A stretch of 64,000 nucleotides of DNA from Anaerolineae bacterium (GCA_049974845.1 JBNGCP010000006.1:22386-86385), one strand, 5' to 3'; counted from the first letter of the stretch, positions 4,308 to 32,724 are shown. Made by a program: numbers and translations. The notes: generated from the letters alone by a model not told the origin.

Positions 4308-4480
4308 CCATAGACCCGTAGGCTCGGCACATAGCGATGTCATGAGCCAGATGGAACGGCACAGAGACCTGTCTCGCCTGTGACCCGCGTGCCTCCATCT
4401 GGCAAGGCCGGTGCGTCCCCTGGCGCGTCCGATATCGGCGTTTCTTGTCACCGATCTAAAAGACAGTAGAATGCCAGATT

Positions 4481-6097: not shown

Positions 6098-6102
6098 GAC
6101 TT

Positions 6103-7482
6103 ATGCACAGTACACACAATCCCGCGAAAGCAACCTCGAGTCTTCGCAAGAAAGCACGTTCTCTTTTGCGGCACGGTGCAGCCCTGCTGATCGTGGCGAC
6201 GCTGTTGATCGCAACCGGTTGTGGTCCGGCGGAGCTGCTGTCGGCAGAGGAACGCCAAATCATCGTTCTCTGGCATACCTTCACCGGCGCGGAAGCTGAA
6301 GCCGTGGAGACCCTGACCGATCGCTTCAATGACGCAAATCCCTGGCAGATCGTCCTGATTACGGAGTACCAGGAGGATCTGCTGGACAAACTCAGACGAC
6401 AAGATGCACCGGAGAGCCGACCCGATCTGATCACCATCTGGCCGAAGGATCTGCAGAGCTATGTCGCGTTGGATATGGTAGGCGTGCCTCCCACCCATTC
6501 ACCGGAGATAGCGGACGCGTGGGGCGATATCCTGCCGATGGCCGGCGCGCTCTACGAAGTCGATGGGGTTCCACAGGCGCTTCCTCTGGGGTTGGCGACC
6601 TATCTCGCATACTTCAACCTGGACTGGTTGGGTGATTTGAGTTATGACTCAGAGGTGGCGAACTGGGAGGACTTCCGCCGGACAGCTTGCGGTGCCACTG
6701 ACCCGTTGAGGGGTCAGATTGGCGTGGGCGTGCCGGCGCGAGCCAGCCTCCTGCTGGCATTCCTGGCAGCCAGCGGCTCGGAGATCGTCGGTGAGGATGA
6801 TTACTACCAGTTCTCCGACGAGTCCGGACGAGCTGCGGCCTCGGTCCTCCACGCCGTGATGAGCGCTGAGTGCGGCATGGTCTATCAGGATCGTGACGAG
6901 GGCCTGGCGCGATTGAGCAAGAGCTCAATGGCCATGATTGTGGAGTCGAGCGAATACCTCTCACAGGTTCAGCGCGCGATTCTGGCAGGCCGCAATTTTC
7001 AGTTAGGGGTCAGCCCCCTCCCGGGCTCGGCAGGCCCTGGCCCTACGCTCTGGTACGGCCCCGGCTTGATGATCTCCGCGCCGGAGGGGGAGCGCCAGGT
7101 AGCCGCGCTCAGGGCATTAGCCTGGTTCTTCTCGCCCGAATCGCAACGCTACTGGGGCCAGACCACAGAGTACATTCCCATCCGGCGCTCCGTCGTCGAG
7201 GCCGAGCTGGAGAGGATTGACCAGATGCCTCTGGTGTCTTCTGAGATCAGCCTCCTGGAGATCACCCTCAATGCAGCAGACAGCGGCGATTGGGTTGCAT
7301 GGCCTCAGGCCACGAACCGCATCGCCTGCCGTGCGGCGCTGTTGCGCGGGCTCCTCGCGCTACAGGAGATGGACGCCGACACTGATGCGTACGTCGAAAC
7401 GGCGGTCACCGCCTGTAATACCGGCGTAGGATTCCGGACGGAGCCCTCACCCTCCCCTACGCCGGATCCGGAGACCCCGTGA
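6103..7482 (+). CDS. ABC transporter extracellular solute-binding protein (sugar-type), lipoprotein
   Basis: This is the real part of long frame artefact 4756..7482. It starts at ATG 6103 with a lipoprotein signal (LLIVATLLIATGCGP) and has family-1 solute-binding features. There is no adjacent permease or ATPase. Confidence 0.7.
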   Translation: MHSTHNPAKATSSLRKKARSLLRHGAALLIVATLLIATGCGPAELLSAEERQIIVLWHTFTGAEAEAVETLTDRFNDANPWQIVLITEYQEDLLDKLRRQDAPESRPDLITIWPKDLQSYVALDMVGVPPTHSPEIADAWGDILPMAGALYEVDGVPQALPLGLATYLAYFNLDWLGDLSYDSEVANWEDFRRTACGATDPLRGQIGVGVPARASLLLAFLAASGSEIVGEDDYYQFSDESGRAAASVLHAVMSAECGMVYQDRDEGLARLSKSSMAMIVESSEYLSQVQRAILAGRNFQLGVSPLPGSAGPGPTLWYGPGLMISAPEGERQVAALRALAWFFSPESQRYWGQTTEYIPIRRSVVEAELERIDQMPLVSSEISLLEITLNAADSGDWVAWPQATNRIACRAALLRGLLALQEMDADTDAYVETAVTACNTGVGFRTEPSPSPTPDPETP

Positions 7483-8267
7483 ATCGTTACGAGCACTGGC
7501 TTCGCGTGGGATTGGACGCCGCGGAGGAAGCCGCGGCCTACGCACGACATGAGTGGCGCGCTAAACACGTCATCCATGAGAAGGGCTATCGCGATATCGT
7601 CACCGATACCGATCTTGCCATGGAAGCGCTCATCCTGGACCGCCTGCACGCCGCTTTCCCAGATCATGCGGTGACCTCCGAGGAAGCCGGCGTTGAGGCT
7701 AGTGACGCTCACGTGCGCTGGCTCATTGATCCCCTTGACGGCACAAGCAACTTCTCCCGGAACAATCCCAACTTCAGCACGGCTATTGCGGCTATAGAGG
7801 ATGGCGTGCCTGTCATTGGCATCATCTACGACGCCCTTCGCGCCCAGGCCTTCACGGCCTATGCCGGTGGCGGCGCCTACCTGGATGGAGAGGCGATCCA
7901 CGTCTCAGGGCAAACGGAGGTCGCCGAGGCGATCGTCAGCCTTGATGCACCGCGTGAGCCCCACCTGCGCCAACAGATGCTGACCTATATCGAGCGGTTT
8001 CTGGCTCGCGGTCGGACGATCAGGGCTCTGGGATCGGCGGCGCTGAACATGGCTTATGTAGCGACCGGCTGGGTGGATGGGTATTTCAGCGCTCACATGA
8101 AGCCCTGGGATCAGACAGCCGCAGTGTTGCTGGTTCGGGAGGCCGGCGGTGCCGTCGGCACGGTGTCCGGGAAAGCCTGGACGCCCTACAGCCCGGATCC
8201 CCTGCTGGCTGCGACCCCGACCCTGCTGGAAGCCATACGCTTAATCATAGGGGGGGAAAGCCCGTGA
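7479..8267 (+). CDS. Inositol monophosphatase family protein
   Basis: It carries the IMPase signature motifs WLIDPLDGTSNF and a Mg-binding DP(L/I)DGT, and is 262 aa. The GTG start overlaps the upstream stop. Confidence 0.85.
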   Translation: MNRYEHWLRVGLDAAEEAAAYARHEWRAKHVIHEKGYRDIVTDTDLAMEALILDRLHAAFPDHAVTSEEAGVEASDAHVRWLIDPLDGTSNFSRNNPNFSTAIAAIEDGVPVIGIIYDALRAQAFTAYAGGGAYLDGEAIHVSGQTEVAEAIVSLDAPREPHLRQQMLTYIERFLARGRTIRALGSAALNMAYVATGWVDGYFSAHMKPWDQTAAVLLVREAGGAVGTVSGKAWTPYSPDPLLAATPTLLEAIRLIIGGESP

Positions 8268-9418
8268 GACCTTGTGGCGATCATCGCCGCTTAGGCATAA
8301 GGGTAGGGCTCTGGTTGCTTGCCACAGCTCTGCTCTTTGCCGTAGCCCAGCCGATCCTTGCCCAAGACGATCCCCGCGGCCACTTTCTCGATCTACTCAA
8401 CCAGCTACGACTCAGCGAAGGGCTGGCGCCGCTGGGGAACTCCACGCTCCTCAACCAGGCCGCCCAGCGCCACGCCGAGGATCTGGTGACGCAGGGCGTC
8501 GTGACGCACGAAGGCTCGGATGGGAGCAGCTACCAACAGCGTATTCGCGAGGCTCGCTACCACGCATGGAACGACGGCCTGATGGTCGACGAGGTGCTGT
8601 GGACCGGATTGGGCACAGCCGAGGATGCCGTGATATGGTTTAGGAATAACGCCGAGTGGGCCGTTCTCACAGATCCCCGCTATCGTGAGGTCGGCATTGG
8701 CTACGCCGACGACCACGGGATCCGCTACTTCGTCGTCGATCTTGGGTCACGACCGGGCGTTCTTCCGATCTTTATCAACGACGGTGCTGAGACCACGGAG
8801 GCTCCCCAGGTCGCTCTTCGGCTGACCAATGAGGAGGCTGTGCCGCTGGGAGATGGTACCTGGATGGGTACAGCTATCGAGGTGCGCGTCAGCAATACAC
8901 CGGATTTTGATGGGCAGCCCTGGCAACCTTGGGAGCCCCTCCTCCCCTGGATGCTGTCCGGGCAGGAGCCAGGTGACTATGCCGTATATGTGGAGTTTCG
9001 CGATGGGGCGGCTCGCACAGCGATTGCCGAGGATCTCATCCGGCTGGTGCCGCCGGGCGAATCGCCTCCTACACCGACACCTTTCACCGATACGGGCCCA
9101 GTCACACCCTCATCCGAAGAGCCCACCGCCGCACCGGAGGCGACCGACGCGGCGCCATCCCCCGAGTTGACCCCGGCCTCGGCGCGACCGACAGCAGCGC
9201 CCCGCGATCCCATATCGTCAACGGGCGAGATCGCACTTCCCTCCGAATCTGAGACGTACGAGGGCCTGCTCACACCCTACCCCACATGGACACCGCTGGC
9301 CTCTGATGAGCTGGTTGCCGTGGAGAGAGAGCCGACCGATTGGCCCCTTCTCGCAGTCTTCGTACTGCAGGCCGTGGCCGTGTTGTTAGGAGCTGCGGCC
9401 TTCCTCAAGCGACACTGA
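8264..9418 (+). CDS. CAP/SCP-domain secreted protein with Pro/Thr-rich linker and C-terminal TM anchor
   Basis: It has a signal peptide, a CAP-like domain (LNQAAQRHAEDLVTQGVVTHEGSDG...), a PT-rich low-complexity region and a C-terminal hydrophobic helix. Confidence 0.6.
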   Translation: MRPCGDHRRLGIRVGLWLLATALLFAVAQPILAQDDPRGHFLDLLNQLRLSEGLAPLGNSTLLNQAAQRHAEDLVTQGVVTHEGSDGSSYQQRIREARYHAWNDGLMVDEVLWTGLGTAEDAVIWFRNNAEWAVLTDPRYREVGIGYADDHGIRYFVVDLGSRPGVLPIFINDGAETTEAPQVALRLTNEEAVPLGDGTWMGTAIEVRVSNTPDFDGQPWQPWEPLLPWMLSGQEPGDYAVYVEFRDGAARTAIAEDLIRLVPPGESPPTPTPFTDTGPVTPSSEEPTAAPEATDAAPSPELTPASARPTAAPRDPISSTGEIALPSESETYEGLLTPYPTWTPLASDELVAVEREPTDWPLLAVFVLQAVAVLLGAAAFLKRH

Positions 9419-9471
9419 GATATCCTTAACCCAACTGAAACGCAAAAGAATGCGTGCAGGATGAGAAACGG

Positions 9472-9507
9472 TGCTAGTATGAGACTAAGCGATTTCACAT
9501 ACTAGCA
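9472..9507 (+). terminator. Hairpin downstream of the CAP-domain gene (tgctagtatg...catactagca)
   Basis: A perfect 10-bp inverted repeat with a 16-nt loop sits 54 nt after the stop. A weak T tract follows. Confidence 0.35.
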
Positions 9508-9631
9508 GCGCTTCTGACGCATCTTGTTGGGCCGACGTCCCTGGCTTGTCATAGGGCCAGCCCGGCGAGCAACGCCAGCGCAGAGGCGGCAACTTGGTAC
9601 CTACTCCGATCTGGGAAAGGAGTCTCTACCT

Positions 9632-10660
9632 ATGAAGCGATGGCGTGGTCTTCTCCTCTTTGTGCTGGGGTTGATCCTTACAACGTTGGTGTGGCATCCT
9701 GTCGCCGCTGCGCCCTTGGCGGACACGACATACATCGTGCAGCCCGGCGATACGCTGACGCGCATTGCAGGGCGTTACGGGATTCCGGTGAGCCAGCTGG
9801 CTGCAGCCAATGGCCTGGGAGGGAACGCCTGGGTCTACGCAGGCCAGCGCCTGACCATTCCGACGAGTGCGCCTCTCAACCCCGCGCCAGCGCCCAGCGG
9901 CACGACCTATGTGGTCCAGCGGGGCGATACACTGATGAGCATTGCGGCCCGCTACGGTGTCAGCGTCAGCGAGCTGGCAAATATAAACGGCCTCCATTGG
10001 AACTCCTGGGTCTATGTCGGCCAGCGACTGACCATCCCAGGCGGGGCACCCGCTCCCGCACCCAGCCCCAATCCGGACCCACCTGCGACGAGCGATGGCT
10101 ACTACGTGGTCAAGGCCGGCAACACGCTCTTCAGCATCGCGCGCTGGTATGGAACCACCGTTAATGCGTTGCGCGTCGCGAATGGCCTGACATCGAACAC
10201 GATCTACGTGGGACAGCGGCTGAGGATTCCCGGAGGCGGCGATGGCACCGGCGACCCGCCGGCGCCCAGTCCACCCCCCGAACCCCGTCCGGGTCCCGGC
10301 ACCGGCGGCGAGAAATGGATCGACATCAACCTGAGCGCCCAACGCGTGACGGCCTACCAGGGCCAGACGGCGGTCTACTCAGCATTGGCCTCCACGGGGA
10401 CGTGGCGAACGCCGACGGTCGTGGGTACATTCCACGTCTACGCCAAATACCGGTACACACCGATGAGCGGGCCGGGATACTATCTCCCCAACGTCCCCCA
10501 TACAATGTACTTCTACCGCGGGTACGCGATCCACGGCGCGTACTGGCACAACAACTTCGGAACGCCGATGAGCCACGGCTGCGTAAATCTCTCGTTGCCC
10601 GATGCAGAGTGGTTCTATAACTGGTCCCCCATGGGGATCAAGGTCGTGAGTCACTACTGA
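9632..10660 (+). CDS. LysM-repeat L,D-transpeptidase (YkuD domain)
   Basis: It has three LysM repeats (YIVQPGDTLTRIAGRYG..., YVVQRGDTLMSIAARYG..., YVVKAGNTLFSIARWYG...) and a YkuD catalytic motif (HGCVNLS). It starts at ATG 9632 after an AAAGGAG RBS. Confidence 0.85.
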   Translation: MKRWRGLLLFVLGLILTTLVWHPVAAAPLADTTYIVQPGDTLTRIAGRYGIPVSQLAAANGLGGNAWVYAGQRLTIPTSAPLNPAPAPSGTTYVVQRGDTLMSIAARYGVSVSELANINGLHWNSWVYVGQRLTIPGGAPAPAPSPNPDPPATSDGYYVVKAGNTLFSIARWYGTTVNALRVANGLTSNTIYVGQRLRIPGGGDGTGDPPAPSPPPEPRPGPGTGGEKWIDINLSAQRVTAYQGQTAVYSALASTGTWRTPTVVGTFHVYAKYRYTPMSGPGYYLPNVPHTMYFYRGYAIHGAYWHNNFGTPMSHGCVNLSLPDAEWFYNWSPMGIKVVSHY

Positions 10661-10795
10661 TCGTCAGCCGGTTCAGGCCAACAACGCACCGGCGGGAGCG
10701 ACAGCGCTCCCGCCGGTGCGTTGTTGGAACTTTTTCGTCCTCTGATGCGTCATAAGAGTGAGTATGTTGAAGATCATTGACTTCGGAGGAGAGAA

Positions 10796-11263
10796 ATGTT
10801 GAAGCATAAATTGGCCTTCAGTCTGTTCTTAGGGTTGGGATTGGTCAGCCTATTGATACTTAGCGCGTGTCGCCCTTCTGACTTGGTAGATGGGGCGCCG
10901 CTGCCACCGGCGCCGACCGATGACGTACAGCCAGGCGGACAGGCCTTCATCGAGTCGTTGGATCTGATGATCCTGGAGTCCTTCCCGGTTCAGGTCAGGG
11001 CTCACATCACAGGGCATCTCTCGGACGGGTGCACAGAGATCGAGGCGATCCAGGTTGTGCGTGACGAGGACGCAAAGGCCTACACCATCACAATCGAGAC
11101 GTCGCGCGATCCCGAGGCGATGTGCACGCAAGCCCTGGTCCCCTTTGAGGAGACGGTGAATCTCGACGTTCAGGGCATGCCGGCAGGGACCTACACCGTT
11201 GTCGCCGACGATCAGACCGCTACATTCGAGCTTGCGGTAGACAACGTCATGCCGGAGGAATAG
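10796..11263 (+). CDS. Hypothetical lipoprotein
   Basis: It has a signal peptide with a lipobox (LLILSAC) and no recognisable domain. Confidence 0.5.
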   Translation: MLKHKLAFSLFLGLGLVSLLILSACRPSDLVDGAPLPPAPTDDVQPGGQAFIESLDLMILESFPVQVRAHITGHLSDGCTEIEAIQVVRDEDAKAYTITIETSRDPEAMCTQALVPFEETVNLDVQGMPAGTYTVVADDQTATFELAVDNVMPEE

Positions 11264-23188: not shown

Positions 23189-23458
23189 GGTCTTTCCCAG
23201 GCCTCTCAGAGCGCAGCTGGCAAGGGATGTGTGTGGGGGTGGAACATCGTGATACCGGATCCGCCCAAGCGACGTGACAGAAAGGCTCTCCTGTACGTAG
23301 AAGAGCTGAAACATCGGATCCTCGCCGATCCAAGCCTCCCCGCTCGCTATGATGGACGTCATTGAGGCTGGGCTCTGGCGCCCGGTCCAACAGGAGCTAG
23401 AAACGCGGGGATTCACCGCCAACAACTTCGTCTGGTGGGCCTTCGACCCCCAGCACGC

Positions 23459-24202
23459 CTAAGGCTTGTGCGCGCGGATGAGAAAGAAGGGCAGGTGCGC
23501 GACCTGCGACCACGGCCCCGAACGAGTAGCGGCAGCACTCCGGATCTCAGCCAACCTCGACCGCTCTTCCACCGTCAGAGGCAGGTCCTCAAGGTAGTCA
23601 AAGCGCGAGAGAGCGGGCGGAAAAAGGGTATCGAAGAGCGAGATGTGCACGCTAAACCCTCGCTCCGCGAGAAGCCCGGGCAGCTTTCGACCGACATAAG
23701 GATCGGCGCCGGCACGCGTCAGCGCGCTGATCCATAGCGGACGGCTGCGGATCTCAGGTGGATGCTCGATCATCCCATCGTAGTCGGGTTCCAGCGCGAC
23801 GAAGGCCCCGCCGGGCTGCAACACGCGCCAGATCTCATCCACCGCGAGGGACAAAGGGCTGACCCACAGCAGGGTCACCTGCGAGAACACCAAATCAAAG
23901 ACCCCATCGGCGACCGGCAGCCGGGTGGCATCCGCGGCAAGCTTCGAGGTCCCCCTGGGACTCTGCCACGATCGCAGCGCCGCAAACGCAAGGTCTAATG
24001 CGACCACCCGCCCCCGCGACCGTCGTCGAAGCTCCGCAGCAACCGTACCGAACCCAGTCCCGAGGTCGAGAACGCGGTTGCGGCGAGCCACGTGGACCCG
24101 CCGCAACAAAACCGACCGAGCCGGCGCAAGCCATTCAGCCTGCTGTGCCATCAGCGCCGGCTCCGGCAGCGCAAAGCTGAGGCCGCTATTCATTCGCGCC
24201 AA
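23459..24202 (-). CDS. Class I SAM-dependent methyltransferase
   Basis: It has the SAM-binding motif I (VLDLGTGFGTV) and motif post-I (VVALDL). It is the last gene of the minus-strand rSAM cluster. Confidence 0.75.
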   Translation of the reverse strand: MARMNSGLSFALPEPALMAQQAEWLAPARSVLLRRVHVARRNRVLDLGTGFGTVAAELRRRSRGRVVALDLAFAALRSWQSPRGTSKLAADATRLPVADGVFDLVFSQVTLLWVSPLSLAVDEIWRVLQPGGAFVALEPDYDGMIEHPPEIRSRPLWISALTRAGADPYVGRKLPGLLAERGFSVHISLFDTLFPPALSRFDYLEDLPLTVEERSRLAEIRSAAATRSGPWSQVAHLPFFLIRAHKP

Positions 24203-24208
24203 CGCACG

Positions 24209-26113
24209 CTAACGTCCGCCCCCCGCGCAGGCGCAGGCACACGCACAACCGGCGCAGGCGCACGCGCAGCTGCTGCGACCACCACCACCGCTCCCGCCGC
24301 TGCTCTTTGAGGCCTTGGACATCGCCTCAAAGACGTCACCGGTGACACGATCGACGCCACTAAGGTCGACGAAACCACCCTTAGCACCGGGGATGTTCAT
24401 CGAGCCAGGCAGAACCGCCGCAGCCATGCTGCCCATCGTCGTCTCCGCCCAACCGGAAAAAGAGGCCGCGACGTCGCCGAAGGAGGTCCGCCCCCCGCCA
24501 CTGGGGCGCGCGGTCGGCGCCCCGCCGCCGGCGCCCGAGGTCACGGGTCCGCCGGTCGGGCGCGCCCACATGGGCCAGTAGTGGTAACCTCCATGCGTCA
24601 AGACCGTCGGGTAATTGTCGTTCATCATAACCCAGGGCAGATACTTATCGAGGTATTGCTCGCGTTCCCGGACCTCACCCATCTGTCTGGCTTGCTCCAT
24701 CGCCCGCGAGATCACGCGTTCGTAGTACTCCCGGGTCTGCGCGAGGTCGAACCCCTCCATCTTGGCAGCGGTGGACGTGATCAGGCCCTCCATCGCGGCG
24801 GTGAAATCAATCTTCTCCACCGGCTTGTTCGGATTGCGCTCCAACTGATCCAGGAAATCTTGCTCGTAGGCGTGAATGACCGTGCCCGCCTGTTGAGCCG
24901 CCGTTTGACGGGCATTGTGGCGCTTCTTCTTCGAGCGTCGCAGGTCGGGATCGTCCCACATCTTGAATGCATCGTTGACCTTCACGGTCAACGGATCCGG
25001 CTTCACGAGCGTCACGATGCCTTTTTCCAGCAGACCAAACATGGCCAGGGTGAGAATCTTGTGGAGCGGCAACTCCAACAGGATGGCAGCCTCAGGTGCC
25101 GTGAGCCCGCGCTTGATACCGCCACCCTCCACCTGGGCGATGGGTGGCAGATAGTCGTGGGGCTTTTTCTTCAGACGGACTTCATTGAAGATGACAAGCG
25201 CAATCAGCACCGGAATAGCTGGCAGCATCAGAATGGGCGCAGCAAAGAAGAGCAGGATCGCGCCGCCCGCGAGGATAGCAAAGACGGTGCAGCCCGTCCC
25301 GCCCGAGAACCGGAAGAAGAGCAAAGCCAGGAGGCCCACATTGATGGCCCCAAGGATGAGCCGGGCGCCGGGATTGTCGGCAAGCCACCGGTTCACCAGT
25401 TCGATCAACGTCATGCGCTCGACGCGTGTCATCACCCGCTGCGGGAAAGACACCCCGACCATGCGCGGCCCTGTGAGGCTGACATCCTCCCATTCCCAGA
25501 GGACAACGGTGTGGCCCTGGAACAAGGCCCTGTCTGTAAAGGGCTCCTGCTGATAAAGGGCTTCCTCCGGTTCCACGCCTTCAGGCAAGTGAACGGCGAT
25601 TGCAAGCTCGCTCGCACCACGAACGGATTCCTCGTCAAACCAGGTGGGCGTGATGCGGAACGAGGCAAAATCTCGGTTCGTCGTGTCCTGATAGACCATA
25701 TCCGGCATCGTGGCCTCGAAGTGGAGCGTCGCCGTCTCACCCGGTGAGATGGCCATTTCGCGCAGGTGAATCTCGACGCCGATGTCGACATACTCGGAGG
25801 TCCGAATATCGTTCAAGGTGACGCCATCGATGCTGGCTGTCATGTTGTCGATAGTGTAGTCCCTGTGCGGCAGACCAATGTCGACAATGTCGATGGGCGA
25901 TCCCTGGTTTTCGAACGTGATGTCATAGACCAACCGGGCCGAGGCATCGGGTTGGACGTAGACCTGCAATTCCATTCTCGGCACAGCGAACACGTAGCTC
26001 TGTGCGCTTGCCGGATGGATGCTCGCCCCCAGCAACACAAGCACGACAAAGAGTGACACTACCAAAGAGAGGCGTTTAGACATATCCGTGTTCACCTCCG
26101 TGCGATGCTCCAT
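24209..26113 (-). CDS. Large membrane protein A, DUF2207-like architecture, with C-terminal Gly-rich/Cys-Ala tail (…GGSGGGGRSSCACACAGCACACACAGGGR)
   Basis: It is 634 aa with a signal/TM, a ~230-aa extracytoplasmic domain, a TM cluster, a ~300-aa cytoplasmic domain (YHYWP) and a Gly-rich segment ending in a 7-Cys alternating Cys-Ala tail. It is a paralog of 26140..27915. Confidence 0.7.
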   Translation of the reverse strand: MEHRTEVNTDMSKRLSLVVSLFVVLVLLGASIHPASAQSYVFAVPRMELQVYVQPDASARLVYDITFENQGSPIDIVDIGLPHRDYTIDNMTASIDGVTLNDIRTSEYVDIGVEIHLREMAISPGETATLHFEATMPDMVYQDTTNRDFASFRITPTWFDEESVRGASELAIAVHLPEGVEPEEALYQQEPFTDRALFQGHTVVLWEWEDVSLTGPRMVGVSFPQRVMTRVERMTLIELVNRWLADNPGARLILGAINVGLLALLFFRFSGGTGCTVFAILAGGAILLFFAAPILMLPAIPVLIALVIFNEVRLKKKPHDYLPPIAQVEGGGIKRGLTAPEAAILLELPLHKILTLAMFGLLEKGIVTLVKPDPLTVKVNDAFKMWDDPDLRRSKKKRHNARQTAAQQAGTVIHAYEQDFLDQLERNPNKPVEKIDFTAAMEGLITSTAAKMEGFDLAQTREYYERVISRAMEQARQMGEVREREQYLDKYLPWVMMNDNYPTVLTHGGYHYWPMWARPTGGPVTSGAGGGAPTARPSGGGRTSFGDVAASFSGWAETTMGSMAAAVLPGSMNIPGAKGGFVDLSGVDRVTGDVFEAMSKASKSSGGSGGGGRSSCACACAGCACACACAGGGR

Positions 26114-26139
26114 CAGAACCCAACGCTATACCCCCGACC

Positions 26140-27915
26140 TCAGCGCCCGCCACCGGCACAGGCACAGGCGCAGGCGCAGCCTGCGCACGCACAGGCACAA
26201 CTGCTCCCCGAGCCTCCCCGCGAGACGGTCACACCAGTGGACGGTTTGCTGAGCGTGGTCGGCAGAATGGCAGCTGCCATCCCGCCCATCGTCGTCTCCG
26301 CCCAGCCGGCAAAGGAAGCCGACACATCACCAAAGGTGGTGGACGGTCGCCCTGATCCACCCGAGACAGCCCCTCCACCGATGCTACTTCCGGCAGTGCT
26401 CACCGTACCGCGAGCTTGTCGCGCCCACACGGGCCAGTAATGGTAACCGCCCAGCCTCAGGGCCGGCCTGTAGTTCGGCCGCATCATGACCCAAGGGAGG
26501 TACTTATCGAGATAGGCCTCACGCTGCTCGATCTCGCCAATGCTCGCAGCCTGCTCCATCGCACGATCGATCACCCGACGATAGTACTCCTGGGTATCGG
26601 AGAGATCGAAACCCTCCATCTTCGCTGCGACGCCGTCGACGAGCTTCTGCATCGGGTTGACGACGGGCAGCTCCTTGACCGGCTTGCCGGGATGGACCTC
26701 GATCAGGTCCAGGAACGGATGCTCGTACTCGTGGATCACGGTGCCCTTCTGTTGGGCCACCTGACGGCGATAGCGCTTCCGGCTCTCCGCGTCCTTTAAT
26801 TCGGGCTTGCCTTCCACCTGAAAGTCGTCGACGACCTCCAGGGTGAGAGGATCTGCATCAGTCTGGCGCACGAGTCCCTTTTCCAGCATTCCAAAGACCA
26901 CCAGCCCCAGCACCTTGGTTAGGGGCAGCTCCAGGACGATCGCGGCTTCCGGAGCCGTAAGTCCGCGCTTGATGCCGCCGCCCTCAACTTGTGCGATCGG
27001 GGGAAGATAGTTGGGTTTGAGGCCGCGGATGACGGCGCGAACGATGACGAAGATAAAGAAGGCGGGAATGGCAACGGGCAGACAGAACATAAGGATCGCC
27101 CCGATCACGGGAAGCACCCCGCCCAACCATCGTCCAAGCAAATCCCAGAAGGTGACCTCAATGACGTTGGTCATGCCACGTCGGGGGAACGAGACGCCCA
27201 CCCGATAGGCCTCCGTCAACCGGATGTCCTCGTACCGCCAGATCGCCACGACTCGCCCCTCATCGTCCAGCACCTTGTCGTCGAAAGGCTCATCCTGGTA
27301 GAGAACCTCGTCGAGCTCGATACTCGGCAGCGTCCTGACCCGAATCTCGACGTCACTCGTGCCCTGCACGAGTTCGCCGTCGAACCAGGTTGGCGTGATC
27401 TGCAGGGAAGCGTTCTCCTCGTTGGTCGTATCGGCATAGACCATCTCAGGCGAGTCAAACTCGAGATGCAGTGTCCCCGTCTCGCCCGCCGGAATAGCGT
27501 ACGGCCCTAGATGGATCTCCACGCCAACGTCGATGTATTCTGAAGGGCGGATGTCCGACACCGGATTGCCGTCGATCGTCGCCACCATCTGATCGACGTC
27601 GTAATCGGCGTTCGGCGTGCCGATATCCACAATGTCGATGGGATCTCCGGAGTTCTCGAACGTGATGTCGTAGACGATGTGGGCGGAGCCATCGGGTTGT
27701 ACAGTTGCACTCAGCAATAGCTCGGGCACGGCGAAGCGGTAAGTCTGCACGTAGGGGCGCGCCAGAACAGTGCCGGCGCCCGAGCCGAGAAGACCCAGGA
27801 GCACAGCCAAGGCCACGACCAGCGCCACAGCCCGCCTTCTGATCGTCGGGGCCACCGTCCTCTCGCGCGTGTCCACCCTTCCGTGGGAGTGTCTATGACC
27901 GGCTGGTCGGGTCAT
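26140..27915 (-). CDS. Large membrane protein B, paralog of A, with identical C-terminal tail SSCACACAGCACACACAGGGR
   Basis: The track ORF extends to 27933, but the probable start is ATG 27915..27913. That ATG overlaps the TGA of the upstream rSAM-like gene by 1 nt. It has the same domain order as protein A; the last 21 aa are identical although encoded by different codons. Confidence 0.7.
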   Translation of the reverse strand: MTRPAGHRHSHGRVDTRERTVAPTIRRRAVALVVALAVLLGLLGSGAGTVLARPYVQTYRFAVPELLLSATVQPDGSAHIVYDITFENSGDPIDIVDIGTPNADYDVDQMVATIDGNPVSDIRPSEYIDVGVEIHLGPYAIPAGETGTLHLEFDSPEMVYADTTNEENASLQITPTWFDGELVQGTSDVEIRVRTLPSIELDEVLYQDEPFDDKVLDDEGRVVAIWRYEDIRLTEAYRVGVSFPRRGMTNVIEVTFWDLLGRWLGGVLPVIGAILMFCLPVAIPAFFIFVIVRAVIRGLKPNYLPPIAQVEGGGIKRGLTAPEAAIVLELPLTKVLGLVVFGMLEKGLVRQTDADPLTLEVVDDFQVEGKPELKDAESRKRYRRQVAQQKGTVIHEYEHPFLDLIEVHPGKPVKELPVVNPMQKLVDGVAAKMEGFDLSDTQEYYRRVIDRAMEQAASIGEIEQREAYLDKYLPWVMMRPNYRPALRLGGYHYWPVWARQARGTVSTAGSSIGGGAVSGGSGRPSTTFGDVSASFAGWAETTMGGMAAAILPTTLSKPSTGVTVSRGGSGSSCACACAGCACACACAGGGR

Positions 27916-29222
27916 CACCCACCTCGGGCCCATCCTTCTGGATCACGCGGGCACGCAGCCGCGCAAATGGCAAGGCCAGGGCAGACCTCGCAGCGGGTCG
28001 GCGCCTCCACGCGCTCGCGATAGTCGCGAAAGACCGCGTCGTTCCAGATCGTGTCCCATGAGTCCCGCAGAAGGTTACCCGCACTCCGGTAGGGCCCACG
28101 GGGTGGGATGACCTCACCGGTGGGCTCGATGCGGACGGCCACGTCCCCAGAGCATCGCGGCCCCTGCAGAATCTGGTCCATCAACGACCTGTTTGGATCC
28201 CTTTCCACCGGCGGATCCCAGATGAACCGTGCGTTGGCCATATCAGCGGTCTCCTCGACGGTCGCAGCCACCTGAGCCATGCCCTCGCGGCTGAAGATAC
28301 CCTCGGCCCGCGCGAGCTGTGGATCCGTCGTCGGATAAGCGATAAAGGAGAGATTGTCAGCGCCATTCGCGATGAGCACGTCCACCGTCGCGTTGATGCG
28401 ATCGAGCGTCGCCTGGACCAAGGGGATCTCGGCCACCGCCGCGATCTGATAAGTCTCCAGCCAATCGAGCACGCTCTGTGCCATAAGGAAATCGCCCTCG
28501 CCGCAGAGGCTATCGTGAATCTCTTGGTCGGCCGCAGCATAGAGGAAGGTCACGTGGTCGACGCCGGTCTGACGAAGGTCGGGCAGGAATCCTTCCACGG
28601 CCAAGGTTGTCGCACGTCCCCTGACACCGGCGATCATGCCCAGATCTTCCGCTCGCTCCACAACCCTTAGCACATCGGTCGGCTCACAGCCGTATGGGAC
28701 GAGGATCGTCACGTGCGGGATCCCCACTTCCCAAAGGCGGTCGAGAATGGGTATAATCACCTTCGGCTCCACCAGTGGCACCGTCGCCTGCAGCGGAGCG
28801 ATGAGCTCGGCAGCATAGGGGGAGAGCGAGGCATCCTCCAGATTGAAGACCGGATACGTATCACCGGGCGCCCTAAGTCGCTCAATGAGAGCGTGCACCT
28901 TCGCGATGTCCCCGCGTACGATCTCCTCCTTGGCGCCGGAGAAGTGCGCTCTCAACCTCTCAACGATCTCGTCGGGGGTTCGGCCCTCAAGCAGGCCCTT
29001 GGCAATGACCACACCCGACGCCGTCAAACGAGCGGCAGCCATCGCGTTGGCGATCAGCATCCCGCTGCCATCCTTCTCCACCCGCAGGTGGAATCGGGCA
29101 AACGCGTCGTCGGTCTCCTGCATCACGTGATAGAGCCCGGGCTCTACGGGCGCGGTGGGTTCGGCGCGCTCAAAGGACAGCAAGCGCTTCAACCAGTCCT
29201 GGGCCATAGACGACCTCCTCAC
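27915..29222 (-). CDS. Degenerate radical-SAM/SPASM-like protein (CxxxCxxC lost, SPASM Cys cluster retained)
   Basis: It is 435 aa and aligns along its length with the 30581..32086 rSAM protein (PGLY...RV.EDGSG N-domain, IPHVTIL core). Where the paralog has YACNNACPHC it has no Cys triad. It retains the C-terminal GPRCSGD...CEVCPGLAICAAACP cluster. Confidence 0.65.
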   Translation of the reverse strand: MRRSSMAQDWLKRLLSFERAEPTAPVEPGLYHVMQETDDAFARFHLRVEKDGSGMLIANAMAAARLTASGVVIAKGLLEGRTPDEIVERLRAHFSGAKEEIVRGDIAKVHALIERLRAPGDTYPVFNLEDASLSPYAAELIAPLQATVPLVEPKVIIPILDRLWEVGIPHVTILVPYGCEPTDVLRVVERAEDLGMIAGVRGRATTLAVEGFLPDLRQTGVDHVTFLYAAADQEIHDSLCGEGDFLMAQSVLDWLETYQIAAVAEIPLVQATLDRINATVDVLIANGADNLSFIAYPTTDPQLARAEGIFSREGMAQVAATVEETADMANARFIWDPPVERDPNRSLMDQILQGPRCSGDVAVRIEPTGEVIPPRGPYRSAGNLLRDSWDTIWNDAVFRDYRERVEAPTRCEVCPGLAICAAACPRDPEGWARGG

Positions 29223-29225
29223 AAC

Positions 29226-29942
29226 CTATGCTTGTTGGGGTTGTTGGTATTTTCTTTCGAACAGATCGGGCTCGTAAGCCGCACGTCGCCCCGGACATTC
29301 CCCCCGCGGGCAGAGCTGGCAGCTCTCAAACCGCTCCTCCGTCGGGAATCGAATGCCGGAGATGGTCTTGTTTGGGATCATCAGAAAGCTCTCGGTCAGC
29401 TGCACCCCAATCGCCGCCTCGGGATCCCCGAGAATCCGGAAAAGGGGACGCTGCTGCCGGATCGGCCAATCGGCCAAGGAGCCCGGAGCCATCGTCGACG
29501 TGCGTCCCAAGGCATAGCACTCGTACAGATGGGCGTTAAGCGCCTGCGTCGCCGCCCCCAGCGCGGCCTCCTTGATCGCGTCAGCCCAGTAACGATAGAG
29601 CATATCGTCGAGGCCGTCACTCCAGGTCTGCAGTTCCGCCCCGCACGTGGCGATATAGACGAAAACCCGATGAGCCACCGCAAGGTTGACTCGCAATACG
29701 CGGCTGTGCAGCCTCACGCCGTCGACGGTCACACTCTCGTCGGACCTGTCGTCGACGTAGGCGAGCTTGTACATGGCCTTAGGCCTGGCGATCGCCGCGG
29801 CTGTCTTGAGCAGCCCGGCAAACTCGGCAAGCTGCTGGCTGCCGTCCTTGAGCCTCAGACGTTTGGCCAATGAGCCAAGGTCAGGCTGAAAAACAATGTC
29901 ATCGAGTATGTAAGGTCTCTCGCCGTTATCGATTGCGTTCAT
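29226..29942 (-). CDS. MetH activation-domain-like (AdoMet-binding) protein with C-terminal CxxCxxxxC motif
   Basis: It is 238 aa. The segment LTESFLMIPNKTISGIRF and the preceding PGSLADWP resemble the conserved core of the B12-dependent methionine synthase reactivation domain (E. coli LTESFAMWPGASVSGWYF). The C-terminus is SCQLCPRGECPG. Confidence 0.5.
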   Translation of the reverse strand: MNAIDNGERPYILDDIVFQPDLGSLAKRLRLKDGSQQLAEFAGLLKTAAAIARPKAMYKLAYVDDRSDESVTVDGVRLHSRVLRVNLAVAHRVFVYIATCGAELQTWSDGLDDMLYRYWADAIKEAALGAATQALNAHLYECYALGRTSTMAPGSLADWPIRQQRPLFRILGDPEAAIGVQLTESFLMIPNKTISGIRFPTEERFESCQLCPRGECPGRRAAYEPDLFERKYQQPQQA

Positions 29943-29986
29943 TGTTGTCTGCTATGGTTCCGTTCTGTGCGTGAAAGGTTCTCGGG

Positions 29987-30523
29987 TCACGATCGGTGGG
30001 CCACCAACAGCCCTCGAATCAGGGCCAACAGCCCCAGGCCGATGAAGAGGATCGGCCACCCGATGAAGTCCAGGCCAAGACCGCTGATATTCAGGATCAG
30101 TTCAAAGAAGACCAGGCCCACGAGAAACATGATCAGCCCGATGTTCACCAGGGTCGAACCGGTCCGTATGGCGCTCTCCCTACGCTTGCTCCAACCATAG
30201 AGCATCTCTGCCAAGCCTATACCAGTTGGGGTGATCAGCGCCCACACGTAGGCCCAACTGGTCCAGTGCCCTGTGACACTTTGATAGAGCAGCACCAATC
30301 CTACCATCGTGACAATCCCGCTCAACATTGCGAAAGGCTCACTCAAGGGCGTATCGGCGGCAAGGGCGAAGAGGAAGATCAAGACGCCGGGCAGAATGAC
30401 AAAGAAGGGCCACAGGAAAGCGCCGATGTTGAGCTGCAAAAACTGCCCGACCAGGGCCAGGACCCCCAGGACGATCAGAGCAATACCGAGTGCCCGAACA
30501 AACGCTCTTGGTCCCTCAAACAT
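29987..30523 (-). CDS. Integral membrane protein (5-6 TM), unknown function
   Basis: It is a 178-aa, very hydrophobic protein inside the rSAM cluster. Confidence 0.55.
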   Translation of the reverse strand: MFEGPRAFVRALGIALIVLGVLALVGQFLQLNIGAFLWPFFVILPGVLIFLFALAADTPLSEPFAMLSGIVTMVGLVLLYQSVTGHWTSWAYVWALITPTGIGLAEMLYGWSKRRESAIRTGSTLVNIGLIMFLVGLVFFELILNISGLGLDFIGWPILFIGLGLLALIRGLLVAHRS

Positions 30524-30580
30524 GCCTTTCCTCCTGCGTGATTTGGAAACCCGGCATCCAAAGCGCCCCGCGAACCTGCC

Positions 30581-32086
30581 CTAGCGTCGCGTCCCCGTCA
30601 GGACGCCCTCCTGTGTCGCAGATCGATCGTCGGTGAATGACACGACGCGGCCCGACCCCCGTCGGGTAGGGCGAGAACACCCGCGCTCAGCCGCCCGAAT
30701 CCCGGCCCGCGCTTCTCGCTCCAACCGGCATCCCCCCCCGCACATCTCCAGGTCCGGACAATCCCAGCAGGCCTCCGGCAACCCCGCGGCTTGCGGGTCC
30801 TCCTCACGATTTCGGAAGCTGAGGAAGAGCTCGCTATTCCATATACTCTCCCACGGATCGGCAAGGATGTTGCCTGCGGTGACGTAGTAAGACTGACAAG
30901 GGAGGACGACGCCGTTGGGCTCGATGCAGATCGAGTATTCGGCTGCATTGCAGCGCTTGGGCGGCAGGCCCAGCGCCACCGGGGACAAGCGGCAGTAGTC
31001 GGTCACCGTGTACCAGAGGAACCGCATGTTGAGCCGCTCGGCCTCGTCCCTCACCGCAGCGAGCAGGGCCGCCATGTCCTCAGCCGGAATGGCAGCGGGC
31101 GTACTCGTCCCTCCTCCGGCATGGATAATACCGTTCATCGCGAAGGTCTGTAGACCTAACTCATGGAGAAACCTGACGGTATCGAGGACGTGATCCTGAT
31201 TTTGCCGGGTAACGGTCGTATTGGTGATGGTGTGTATGCCGGCGTCCAGCGCGCTCTGAATCCCCGCAACCGTCTCTTCGAAAGCGCCCTCCACACCCAC
31301 CATCTCATCATGGACGGAGCGGTAGCACGACTCCAGCGTGATCTGCACGTGGTTGAGCCCTGCTGCTGCCAGCGAGGTCGTCAACACTCGATCCGCGAGG
31401 CGACGTCCGTTGCTGTTCATGCCGACGATCAGACCGAGTCCGTCGGCATACCGAACCAACTGCGCCAGGGCGGGATGGAGTGTCGGCTCACCGCCGGTCA
31501 GGATGACGTGAGGAATGCCGATGTCCAGGATCCGATCGAAGACCCGCATCCAGTCGCGCGTGGTGAGCGAAGCCATCGCGAACCGTTCCTGCTCGTTATA
31601 GCAATGTGGGCAGGCATTGTTGCAGGCATAGGTGAGCGCGACGTCCACCTTATAGGGCGCCGTGACGGGCGTGCTGAAGATCGGCTGAAAATCCACAAGC
31701 GGCCCTAGGGCGCACGTCGGACAGATATTGTCGGTCTCTCGCAAACGCCGAACCATATCATACATCGTGGCGACCGCCTCCGAGAGCTCTCCTTTCGTGA
31801 CACCGCGGTACCGACGAATCATCCGGTCTCGCGCCTCGGCCTGCGGGACGTCGTCCAGCGCTAGCTTGACCATCTCGACGGCAGTCGCATTAAGATGGAT
31901 CACGTCGGTGACGTCGATAAAGAGCACGCCCGAGCCATCCTCGTTGACGCGTAGATGCACGCGGCGCTGCCCCCCGTCCAAGACCAAGGGATAGCTGTAG
32001 AGGCCGGGAGCCATTGCCACCGACCCAGGCTGCAACAGAGCCCGGACGGTAGTCATCAGACGATGCCACTCCGACGATAGATTCAT
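30581..32086 (-). CDS. Radical SAM/SPASM-domain maturase with N-terminal extension
   Basis: It has the canonical CxxxCxxC (YACNNACPHCYNE), a GGEPTL SAM-binding motif and a C-terminal SPASM region (CQSYY...CWDCPDLEMCGGGC). The ~120-aa N-terminal domain is shared with the degenerate paralog. Confidence 0.85.
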   Translation of the reverse strand: MNLSSEWHRLMTTVRALLQPGSVAMAPGLYSYPLVLDGGQRRVHLRVNEDGSGVLFIDVTDVIHLNATAVEMVKLALDDVPQAEARDRMIRRYRGVTKGELSEAVATMYDMVRRLRETDNICPTCALGPLVDFQPIFSTPVTAPYKVDVALTYACNNACPHCYNEQERFAMASLTTRDWMRVFDRILDIGIPHVILTGGEPTLHPALAQLVRYADGLGLIVGMNSNGRRLADRVLTTSLAAAGLNHVQITLESCYRSVHDEMVGVEGAFEETVAGIQSALDAGIHTITNTTVTRQNQDHVLDTVRFLHELGLQTFAMNGIIHAGGGTSTPAAIPAEDMAALLAAVRDEAERLNMRFLWYTVTDYCRLSPVALGLPPKRCNAAEYSICIEPNGVVLPCQSYYVTAGNILADPWESIWNSELFLSFRNREEDPQAAGLPEACWDCPDLEMCGGGCRLEREARAGIRAAERGCSRPTRRGSGRVVSFTDDRSATQEGVLTGTRR

Positions 32087-32316
32087 AATTCTCTATGTAT
32101 GTTTACGTACAAAGCGGCGCCGGGTTGCAGCTCGGCCTTGACACAGAGCACCCCCGAGCCGTAACCGAGGCTGCGCCAACCTTCCCCCCAGCGATGTCCC
32201 CGACGTCTAAGTCGGCATTAACGGACTGATCCACCTGTTGAACGCGAGAGAAAAACGGAGGAGATGGGGGTCACCGCGTTGGCAGGAGCGCGACAGAAAG
32301 AGCACGAGCGCAGCGT

Positions 32317-32724
32317 TCACCACTTTGGGGCTTCTTCGATCTGGTAAGAGGCCCCACAGTACGGACACTCGACGAAAATGGCGCCCGCCTTGACCTCAAG
32401 GTTGCCCTTGCTCAGGGCGCCGCCACAGGACCGACACTTCAGCTGCTCTAGCTGAACATCGCCCGACAGGTCGATCTTCTGTACGTGGGTGTGTTCCTCA
32501 TGTTTGGGGCGAACGCGCGTCAGATAGATGAGCACGCCGGCCGCAGCGAAAAGGATCAGACCGACGACGATGCGTATAACCTGTCCCTGCGATCCCACCA
32601 CAAACATAAACCCGAAAAAGGCCACCACCGCGGCAATCAGGTAGGTCAAGAGCTCCATCGCGTTCTCCTCCACAGGCGTTTTGGGTTGCAGCAGGTAGTA
32701 TAGTCGATCCGCCATGCTCGTCAA
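32317..32724 (-). CDS. Small membrane protein with C-terminal zinc-ribbon (CxxC-x15-CxxC)
   Basis: It is 135 aa with two TM helices and then CRSCGG...CPYCG. It is the first gene of the minus-strand cluster; its start may be the internal Met (MELLTYL). Confidence 0.55.
   Translation of the reverse strand: MTSMADRLYYLLQPKTPVEENAMELLTYLIAAVVAFFGFMFVVGSQGQVIRIVVGLILFAAAGVLIYLTRVRPKHEEHTHVQKIDLSGDVQLEQLKCRSCGGALSKGNLEVKAGAIFVECPYCGASYQIEEAPKW

Follow-up and report, generated by a model that had tools for sequence, protein, structure and literature searches.

To our knowledge, maturases of the radical S-adenosylmethionine (SAM) type with a SPASM domain (rSAM/SPASM enzymes) are known almost entirely from small exported peptides, with few cases in which a whole protein is modified. 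QhpD, an rSAM/SPASM enzyme, installs several cysteine thioethers in QhpC, the gamma subunit of QHNDH. In Methanococcus voltae, the rSAM/SPASM enzyme CrpC installs ranthionine links in CrpA, a 29-kDa cysteine-rich protein, and modifications like those of ribosomally synthesised peptides with post-translational modifications (RiPPs) also occur in QHNDH, MCR and the ribosome (2026; PMC13692751). Here we characterise a 64,000-nucleotide stretch of DNA from an Anaerolineae bacterium (GCA_049974845.1, JBNGCP010000006.1:22386-86385; the whole stretch is referred to as the window), in which positions 23459-32724 hold eight co-directional minus-strand open reading frames (ORFs), g1 to g8. Five of these genes form a conserved cassette, present in many phyla of anaerobic bacteria, which suggests that an enzyme modifies a full-length membrane protein at its tail in a way not yet described. 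By analogy with characterised enzymes, we give a probability of roughly 0.5 to the reading that the rSAM enzyme g2 and its degenerate paralog g5 modify the predicted cytoplasmic tail, probably by thioether crosslinking, and that the five genes constitute a tail-maturation cassette.

All eight genes are present at the coordinates given in a preliminary description of the locus. The genes and the tail-coding segments are as follows:

32317-32724, minus strand: g1, membrane protein with two transmembrane helices and a cytoplasmic C-terminal Zn-ribbon (CxxC...CPYCG); core
30581-32086, minus strand: g2, active radical-SAM/SPASM enzyme with an N-terminal RRE-like domain; core
29987-30523, minus strand: g3, small polytopic membrane protein of no family; accessory
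29226-29942, minus strand: g4, stand-alone protein of the MetH-activation-domain family with a C-terminal CxxCx5C; accessory
27915-29222, minus strand: g5, pseudo-rSAM/SPASM protein, apparently dead paralog of g2; core
26140-27933, minus strand: g6, tail protein, the shorter paralog, 597 amino acids
26143-26199, minus strand: g6 tail, CACACAGCACACACAGGGR, with a stop codon directly after
24209-26113, minus strand: g7, tail protein, distant DUF2207-like membrane protein, 634 amino acids; core
24212-24268, minus strand: g7 tail, CACACAGCACACACAGGGR, with a stop codon directly after; proposed substrate of g2/g5
23459-24202, minus strand: g8, class-I SAM-dependent methyltransferase; frequent core member

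The locus shares with CrpC and CrpA an enzyme of rSAM and SPASM domains, preceded by an RRE in CrpC and by an RRE-like domain in g2, whose gene adjoins that of a full-length protein with a C-terminal periodic cysteine region. In both cases a second, related protein that is not the substrate may help, and the CrpA product is a suspected metal binder. CrpA, however, is soluble and consists of ten 17-residue repeats with C-x-x-Q/D, whereas the protein described here is polytopic and DUF2207-like and has one short (CA)n tail without Asp, Glu, Gln or Asn. The putative helper here is a degenerate enzyme paralog, and a Zn-ribbon membrane protein and a methyltransferase belong to the cassette. The RRE-containing sactipeptide and ranthipeptide maturases SkfB, AlbA, CteB and PapB resemble g2 in domain order (with an RRE-like domain in g2) and in their rSAM and SPASM cysteines, and their substrates, like the putative one of g2, are cysteine-rich, but those substrates are small leader-bearing precursors that are cleaved and exported. 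The cassette has no conserved small precursor ORF and no conserved protease or exporter, the tail would stay on the membrane protein, and the profile scores of g2 lie far below the cut-offs of these families. The crosslinked subunit QhpC remains part of a functional protein, as the tail protein would here, but it is periplasmic, small and soluble, its links join Cys to Asp/Glu and it carries a CTQ cofactor, and no qhp-type neighbours were found among the conserved families of the loci. Metallothionein-like tails have the C-x-C spacing in common with the tail described here, in which the spacers are invariant Ala or Gly and do not vary freely.

Because rSAM/SPASM enzymes are already known to act on full-length proteins (PMC13692751), with CrpC/CrpA and QhpD as precedents, the principle is known and it is the architecture that is new, namely the tail of a polytopic membrane protein as putative substrate class, a target of Cys and Ala only, a fixed set of partners and a broad distribution. 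The preliminary description had not recognised this architecture as a described family, and we found neither a curated family nor, in the literature searched, a paper with the motif. Scans of the eight proteins with Pfam, NCBIfam and PADLOC returned only generic or sub-threshold matches for the rSAM proteins and the methyltransferase and none for the tail proteins or g3, and no Pfam or NCBIfam model reached its cut-off except those of generic domains. Literature searches for the motif strings returned nothing or only DNA primers, and a search for pseudo-SAM/SPASM proteins in Anaerolineae returned nothing.

The proteins g6 and g7 are 55% identical overall and both terminate in CACACAGCACACACAGGGR followed by a stop codon, in agreement with the identical seven-cysteine Cys-Ala tails first described. 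The 4.3-Mb assembly to which the window belongs contains no further ORF of more than 60 codons with the tail. To survey the tail, one genome per GTDB species was scanned with back-translated patterns, using two patterns per tail. More than 600 stretches matched, 302 of which encode relatives of g7, and 80 loci were kept. These come from Chloroflexota (several classes), Planctomycetota, Armatimonadota, Myxococcota/'Deltaproteobacteria', Nitrospirota, Elusimicrobiota, Hydrogenedentota, Acidobacteriota/Aminicenantes, Zixibacteria, Cloacimonadota, Fermentibacterota and others, and two cultured organisms carry the cassette, Bellilinea caldifistulae GOMI-1 (locus L054) and Ornatilinea apprima P3M-1 (L077). 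A second tail gene is confined to the closest relatives among the 80 loci (L001-L006).

The general form of the tail is (CA)n-G-(CA)m-GGGR, which occupies the last 17-19 residues and occurs in two registers, type A, (CA)2-3-G-(CA)4-GGGR, and type B, (CA)3-4-G-(CA)3-GGGR. The last 17 residues are identical in all 120 of the best 120 homologs of g7 (53-100% identity), and the motif is still terminal in proteins only 28-35% identical to g7, including proteins from other phyla. The 89 tail copies taken from other genomes represent 87 distinct nucleotide versions, with one amino-acid replacement in total. All synonymous codons occur at each tail position, among them the six codons for Arg and the three stop codons, and the positions of Ala, Gly and the terminal Arg vary as little as those of Cys. 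The tails of g6 and g7 themselves have different bases at most third codon positions, which rejects gene conversion as the cause of their identity. Thus it is the peptide that is constrained, and in every case it forms the extreme C-terminus of a large membrane protein, as had been proposed. Among the 150 best library representatives, 112 fit (CA)nG(CA)mGGGR, about 20 are small variants (e.g., with Ser for the central Gly, or (CA)5GGGR) and the remainder are fragments cut at the C-terminus; most of the complete sequences end in CACACAGGGR and a few are shorter or deviate slightly. The tail is also borne by 68 short database entries. The ten that were inspected are all C-terminal fragments of the large protein, so that no small stand-alone tail peptide was found among them.

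We examined the gene neighbourhoods of the 80 loci by tblastn, with particular attention to the 47 loci in which the tail gene has 4 kb or more of sequence on each side (full-flank loci). Two gene orders were found: Zn-ribbon protein, rSAM enzyme, degenerate rSAM paralog, tail protein and methyltransferase (order A), and Zn-ribbon protein, tail protein, rSAM enzyme, degenerate paralog and methyltransferase (order B). Unsupervised clustering of the ORFs of the loci recovered four recurrent families, which are the tail protein, the rSAM enzyme together with its paralog, the methyltransferase and the Zn-ribbon protein. The conserved core therefore consists of five genes, those for the Zn-ribbon protein, the tail protein, the rSAM-SPASM enzyme, its paralog and the methyltransferase. 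The apparent eight-gene operon of the preliminary description is complete in the window, but only these five genes are kept with the tail across lineages. An orthologous rSAM gene is present at 65 of the 80 loci and at 43 of the 47 full-flank loci. In the four full-flank exceptions and in one locus with a short downstream flank, the g2 ortholog (44-56% identity) was found on another contig in every case (5/5). The g1 gene lies next to the tail gene equally often (65/80 and 43/47), and g8 is present at 51 of the 80 loci (33/47 with full flanks).

The association holds at the level of whole genomes. Orthologs of g2 were called at 300 bits or more, and the scores are bimodal, with orthologs at 307 bits or more and paralogs at 229 bits or less. 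In an even sample of 251 genomes from the class to which the window belongs, the tail protein is present in 36 and the g2 ortholog in 38, and all 36 of the genomes with a tail carry a g2 ortholog. The two genomes with only the rSAM gene are 85-89% complete, and in one of them the gene lies at a contig edge. Among 151 genomes from the class to which a Thermoguttaceae carrier belongs, both genes were found in three, the same three for each gene. The preliminary description had named two patterns that would argue against the link between tail and enzyme, a tail that occurs widely in genomes lacking the rSAM genes, and rSAM genes consistently linked to a small precursor peptide. Neither pattern was seen: no tail-only genome was found among the 402 sampled genomes of the two classes, and when small ORFs of 18-75 amino acids around the cassettes were clustered, no cluster was common to more than three loci. 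The clustering of ORFs likewise revealed no protease or exporter conserved in the cassette. Since no small ORF is conserved, and only the tail protein, the rSAM pair, the methyltransferase and the Zn-ribbon protein are, the locus is not a classical RiPP cluster. Pairwise distances between tail proteins and between rSAM enzymes from the same loci are correlated (r = 0.77, 0 of 2000 permutations), which is weak evidence as it is expected of any genes that are inherited together. The distribution of the system is patchy, and among the genomes searched it was found neither in the family nor in the order to which the organism of the window belongs.

The enzyme g2 has clear matches to the Pfam models Radical_SAM (89 bits) and SPASM (39.6 bits). 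Its rSAM motif, C155-x3-C159-x2-C162, is retained by all 45 orthologs. Of the SPASM cysteines, g2 has seven to eight (C379-x12-G392-x4-C397 and C440-x2-C443-x5-C449-x3-C453, plus C365), and these are kept in 44-45 of the 45 orthologs. In an AlphaFold2 (AF2) model of g2 with a predicted local distance difference test score (pLDDT) of 87.5, the N-terminus forms four strands (28-65) followed by three helices (67-117), which is the layout of an RRE. The PqqD hidden Markov model (HMM) scores 19.6 bits for g5 (cut-off 23.4) and does not match g2, and it scores 37 bits, above threshold, for the enzyme of a sister system described below. The extra N-terminal domain that both rSAM paralogs had been said to share, and that had been proposed as a possible recognition element, is therefore a candidate RRE, with the strand-then-three-helix layout in the AF2 model, a weak PqqD match in g5 and a clear match in the sister enzyme. 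The best PDB folds for the full-length g2 model are the RRE-bearing RiPP maturases SkfB, SuiB and CteB, ahead of PqqE and anSME, and the best PDB sequence matches are SkfB and PqqE. Against NCBIfam, the 25 families that score best with g2 are all far below their cut-offs (the best is AhbD, with 129 bits against 500); the rSAM/SPASM families below cut-off include AhbD, PqqE, GeoRSP, StsB, SkfB, AlbA, ACGX, ScmE/F, mycofactocin and others. We considered the possibility that g2 is an anSME. Enzymes of that type lack an RRE and recognise the substrate motif C/S-x-A/P-x-R. The tail has no C-x-[AP]-x-R, g2 has an additional N-terminal domain and anSME folds rank lower, and this identity was rejected.

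The paralog g5 aligns with g2 over its full length (27% identity), with a 22-residue gap over the cluster loop. CxxxCxxC is present in none of the g5-like ORFs. The g5 proteins of type A loci keep only the last four SPASM cysteines (CxxCx5Cx3C), and those of type B loci keep none. Pfam finds only SPASM and a weak PqqD in g5, and the RRE-like N-terminus is retained. As the cluster-binding loop is deleted, g5 is predicted from its sequence to be unable to cleave SAM, and it probably acts as a partner, a chaperone or a tail-binding scaffold. In two Anaerolineaceae loci (L053, 17700-19298, minus strand; L062, 14576-16210, minus strand), only the degenerate paralog directly follows the tail gene. 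The active rSAM gene of these loci lies about 3-6 kb downstream on the opposite strand and is type A-like (55% identity to g2), and the tail is of type B.

At least 938 homologs of g7 were found in a word-indexed search. All of them are annotated as hypothetical, and most are from Anaerolineae metagenomes. An exhaustive profile search of 1.84 billion representatives yielded 1,320 clusters at E<=1e-3, of which 507 are at E<=1e-30, and the family of tail proteins thus comprises about 1,300 clusters at 50% identity in at least 12 phyla. The AF2 model of g7 (pLDDT 86.7) has a signal or transmembrane helix at 11-30, a beta-sandwich at 42-224, three transmembrane helices within 248-316, a winged-helix-like unit with a helical cytoplasmic domain at 339-505, a disordered Gly/Ser linker and the tail. 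The g6 protein combines a signal or transmembrane segment and a beta-sandwich ectodomain with a single hydrophobic span, a domain in the cytoplasm and the tail. The N-terminus of g7 is signal-like and ends in ASA-Q, the number of later transmembrane helices is odd, and the last of them is followed by a basic stretch; according to the well-established positive-inside rule, this would place the tail in the cytoplasm. In the model, the ectodomain should therefore be outside and the tail on the same side of the membrane as the enzymes.

The two large proteins had been labelled DUF2207-like, a label that stands at the level of structure and not at the level of the Pfam profile. In Foldseek searches of the AlphaFold database with g7, DUF2207 proteins are the top matches (E 1.8e-17 and 2.5e-14), and feature similarities to DUF2207 clusters of the ESM Atlas are 0.93-0.96. 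The Pfam DUF2207 HMM, in contrast, has no match at E<=1 in any of 20 family members examined, and none in g6 or g7. Because the fold matches and the Pfam model does not, we refer to g7 as DUF2207-like and not as a member of DUF2207. The predicted structures of DUF2207 proteins (PF09972/PF20990) share with it a beta-sandwich ectodomain, transmembrane helices, a cytoplasmic helical domain and a Gly-rich C-terminal tail. The ordinary members in the loci that we retrieved differ in that they end in poly-Gly and have no adjoining rSAM gene. Two loci of our dataset (L094, 11376-13262; L099, 11793-13253) contain such ordinary DUF2207-like proteins with long poly-Gly tails (...GGGGGGGGGGGGAG). As ordinary DUF2207-like proteins of the same genomes end in poly-Gly, the Cys-periodic tails look like elaborations of the general Gly-rich tail of the superfamily. 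Against the PDB, only the ectodomain beta-sandwich of g7 has Foldseek matches, to ribophorin I/Ost1 and to the N-domains of M1 aminopeptidases; these were set aside as offering no functional lead. An archaeal (Thermoplasmatota) cluster of the ESM Atlas, of 474 amino acids and with a Zn_ribbon_TFIIB domain, weakly resembles the g7 model (TM-score 0.34-0.43), and in these proteins the Zn-ribbon partner may be fused to a protein of the DUF2207-like kind, which we note as a lead only.

In a further 37 genomes of the class, the paralogs closest to g2 adjoin a homologous membrane protein of about 580 amino acids that ends in a different periodic tail, (ACHS)n (...ACHSACHSACHSACVSRF). A representative sister locus, L095, has the following genes:

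4203-5936: tail protein
5952-7376: rSAM enzyme
7389-8573: further gene of the locus
8632-9123: Zn-ribbon protein
9081-11168: protease

The sister loci inspected (L092-L099) also encode a Zn-ribbon protein with two transmembrane helices, a protein of about 390 amino acids and an InhA-like MAM metalloprotease. The sister tail protein, which no Pfam or NCBIfam model covers, is homologous to g7 in the transmembrane and cytoplasmic region (24% identity, E 3e-13). Its rSAM enzyme, an RRE-rSAM-SPASM protein, is the nearest paralog of g2 (31-37% identity), and the Zn-ribbon partner and the position of the periodic Cys tail at the extreme C-terminus are also shared. The sister system differs in the tail, whose period is four and whose residues include His and Ser, and in its accessory genes; neither a degenerate rSAM paralog nor a methyltransferase was found in the eight sister loci inspected. 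This recurrence of the same logic, with another Cys-periodic tail on a homolog, suggests that both systems belong to a broader class in which RRE-rSAM-SPASM enzymes serve DUF2207-like proteins whose tails have periodic cysteines.

From the gene content, conservation, co-occurrence, catalytic motifs, fold classes and predicted topology established above, we infer that the tail would be the substrate, which type of chemistry would act on it, and which roles g5, g8 and g1 would have. The substrate would be the DUF2207-like membrane protein, with its linker and (CA)n-G-(CA)m-GGGR tail in the cytoplasm. The enzyme g2, helped by g5, would bind the C-terminal region and act on the tail. A 5'-deoxyadenosyl radical would abstract hydrogen from a carbon of Ala or Gly, and attack by Cys sulfur would then form several intramolecular thioethers of the sactionine or ranthionine type; this chemistry is proposed by analogy with the nearest characterised enzymes. 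The methyltransferase g8 may add a further modification, a methyl group, and g1 would be an obligate membrane partner. The invariance of every tail residue would reflect both recognition by the enzyme and the geometry of the product, which would most plausibly be a module on the membrane's inner face that is rigid and rich in sulfur and that may bind metal. In a bolder version, which we regard as doubtful, the tail becomes a densely crosslinked sulfur structure (a sactionine ladder or radical-made, lanthionine-like Cys-S-C(beta)-Ala links), possibly with a metal or Fe-S centre, and would represent a new protein-derived prosthetic module on the cytoplasmic face of a widespread membrane protein, with the (ACHS)n system as the second member of a larger, unrecognised class of 'tail-matured' DUF2207-like proteins. 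The preliminary description had interpreted the locus as an rSAM/SPASM system acting on the tail of a full-length protein, and each part of this that could be tested held, with the modification itself put forward by analogy.

Several points weigh against crosslinking of the tail by g2. The link between enzyme and tail is drawn from co-occurrence and analogy. The only possible acceptors in the tail are Ala, Gly, Cys and Arg, and the known acceptors of ranthionine links are mostly Asp, Glu, Asn, Gln and Thr. C-x-C repeats are a classic metal-thiolate motif, and the tail of the sister system, rich in Cys and His, fits metal binding. SPASM enzymes also catalyse unrelated reactions (e.g., AhbD, PqqE and anSME), and the top NCBIfam scores of g2 are those of the AhbD and PqqE models. 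Finally, the Zn-ribbon protein co-occurs as tightly as the tail protein does and could be the real partner or substrate. A predicted complex of g2 with residues 536-634 of g7 had a score of 0.01 and a partner pLDDT of about 30, which speaks neither for nor against binding.

An alternative that we hold to be unlikely is that the tail is unmodified and binds a metal or an Fe-S cluster in the manner of a metallothionein, with the rSAM pair coupled to it through exchange of clusters or electrons or through a bound ligand, and without crosslinking. The seven cysteines in C-x-C spacing, the Cys and His of the (ACHS)n tail and the suspected metal binding of CrpA all fit this alternative, as do the DUF2207-like neighbours with plain poly-Gly tails, since the tails of the superfamily may have a role of their own. 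Metal-binding tails, however, normally tolerate changes in their spacers, whereas Ala, Gly and GGGR are invariant here despite saturated synonymous change. In addition, g2 has an RRE-like, peptide-binding domain and its best folds are peptide maturases, and the co-occurrence of the tail and the rSAM gene is near perfect. Metal binding and crosslinking are also compatible, as a crosslinked tail could still bind metal.

The rSAM pair might instead act on the Zn-ribbon protein, on another part of the membrane protein, or on a small molecule or lipid that the membrane complex handles, with the tail kept for some other purpose such as protein-protein docking. The RRE-like domain and the fold class of g2 indicate a peptide substrate, the tail is the only Cys-rich, hyper-conserved and disordered peptide of the cassette, and the same logic is seen again in the sister system, where a homolog of the tail protein bears a Cys-periodic tail of another kind. 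These observations make this explanation quite improbable in our view, even though linkage is as tight for the Zn-ribbon protein as for the tail protein, SPASM enzymes have many non-peptide substrates (the NCBIfam matches include AhbD, NirJ, BlsE and Tes) and g2 is only a putative binder of the tail.

It is very unlikely that the large protein is a giant leader from which the modified tail is cleaved and released as a small RiPP. Such a scenario would explain a core-like peptide at the C-terminus after a flexible linker, the presence of an RRE enzyme and the InhA-like metalloprotease of the sister loci. It is at odds with a cassette that has no conserved protease or exporter, with the predicted cytoplasmic location of the tail and with the strong conservation across phyla of the domains of a 600-residue protein, which is not expected of a mere leader. 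That the tail is a low-complexity or DNA-repeat artefact, as its GC-rich, dinucleotide-like repetition in the protein and the genome's GC content of 62% might suggest, has a probability close to nil, given that the DNA of 87 of 89 copies is different for one and the same peptide, which is conserved across phyla, and that the two tails of the window differ at most third codon positions. An explanation by a DNA- or RNA-level repeat is ruled out by this codon analysis, and all 64,000 nucleotides of the window contain neither tRNA nor tmRNA genes, nor a match to any Rfam family that reaches its gathering score.

Turning to the partner genes, g1 has two transmembrane helices and a CxxC...CxxC. The ORF is present as first described, but its start probably differs. 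Because its relatives have 113 amino acids and the annotated TTG start overlaps a promoter-like site at 32724-32697, the true start, as judged from sequence, is probably the ATG at 32658, which gives a protein of 113 amino acids. The extreme C-terminus of g1 is conserved as E-x-PKW followed by the stop in 28 aligned relatives. The g3 protein has no Pfam or NCBIfam match, and tblastn finds it only in L001, L002 and L006. The g4 protein falls just short of the Pfam cut-off for Met_synt_B12 (23.8 bits against 25, E 3.6e-5), has a feature similarity of 0.97 and a TM-score of 0.84 to Met_synt_B12 clusters of the ESM Atlas, and is present only in the closest relatives, L001-L006. Both g3 and g4 are lineage-specific accessories and not part of the core. 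The g8 protein matches Methyltransf_11 (67 bits), has only sub-threshold matches in NCBIfam and contains no Cys residues. An assignment as ArsM-like was dropped, as its matches are those of a generic class-I methyltransferase and it lacks cysteine.

The genes from g2 to g8 are tightly packed, with successive spacings of 57, 44, 3, -19 (an overlap), 26 and 6 nucleotides, and the gap of 230 nucleotides between g1 and g2 is the exception. The cassette is flanked by two weakly supported signals:

32697-32724, minus strand: promoter-like site with 10 of 12 consensus matches, 5' edge of the cassette (weak)
23285-23306, minus strand: terminator-like hairpin downstream of g8 (consensus match; weak)

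GC content is even across the window (0.59-0.66), and the cassette does not stand out from its flanks in composition. The closest relatives that share the eight-gene layout have an additional gene for a Ser/Thr kinase (Pkinase), which separates the rSAM gene from that for the small membrane protein (L001 and L002, 4165-5463; L006, 4063-5397); this insertion is absent from the window. Contigs from two DNA runs and one RNA-library run join position 24270 to position 26156, which bypasses the body of g7 between the two tail-coding segments. The matching sides of this joint are only 22 letters long, and its depths are above those of the surroundings. The joint probably reflects another strain or organism with a single tail gene, or a collapse in assembly, and given the 22-letter sides we set it aside as evidence for a deletion variant.

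Of the sampled words of the stretch, 94% are found in a crude-oil metagenome run and 59% in an oil-field run; runs with a small share of the sampled words (X8-X20) were left out of this reading of habitat. When the cassette is divided into 30 bins, contigs from a metatranscriptome library of the crude-oil study cover 28 of them, and several junctions between genes are bridged by these contigs. Only bins with contigs from the RNA library were interpreted, and these contigs are consistent with expression of the cassette, with carry-over of DNA being possible.

The two cultured anaerobes that carry the cassette make the hypothesis directly testable. The tail of g7 is preceded by Arg and has no internal Lys or Arg, and it would be expected as a single tryptic peptide, so that a modification could be sought directly. 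If crosslinking of the tail is confirmed, it would extend RiPP-type chemistry to membrane proteins, and a substrate of Cys and Ala only could reveal crosslink chemistry on the unactivated carbons of Ala or Gly. It would also give a first functional handle on the large DUF2207-like superfamily.

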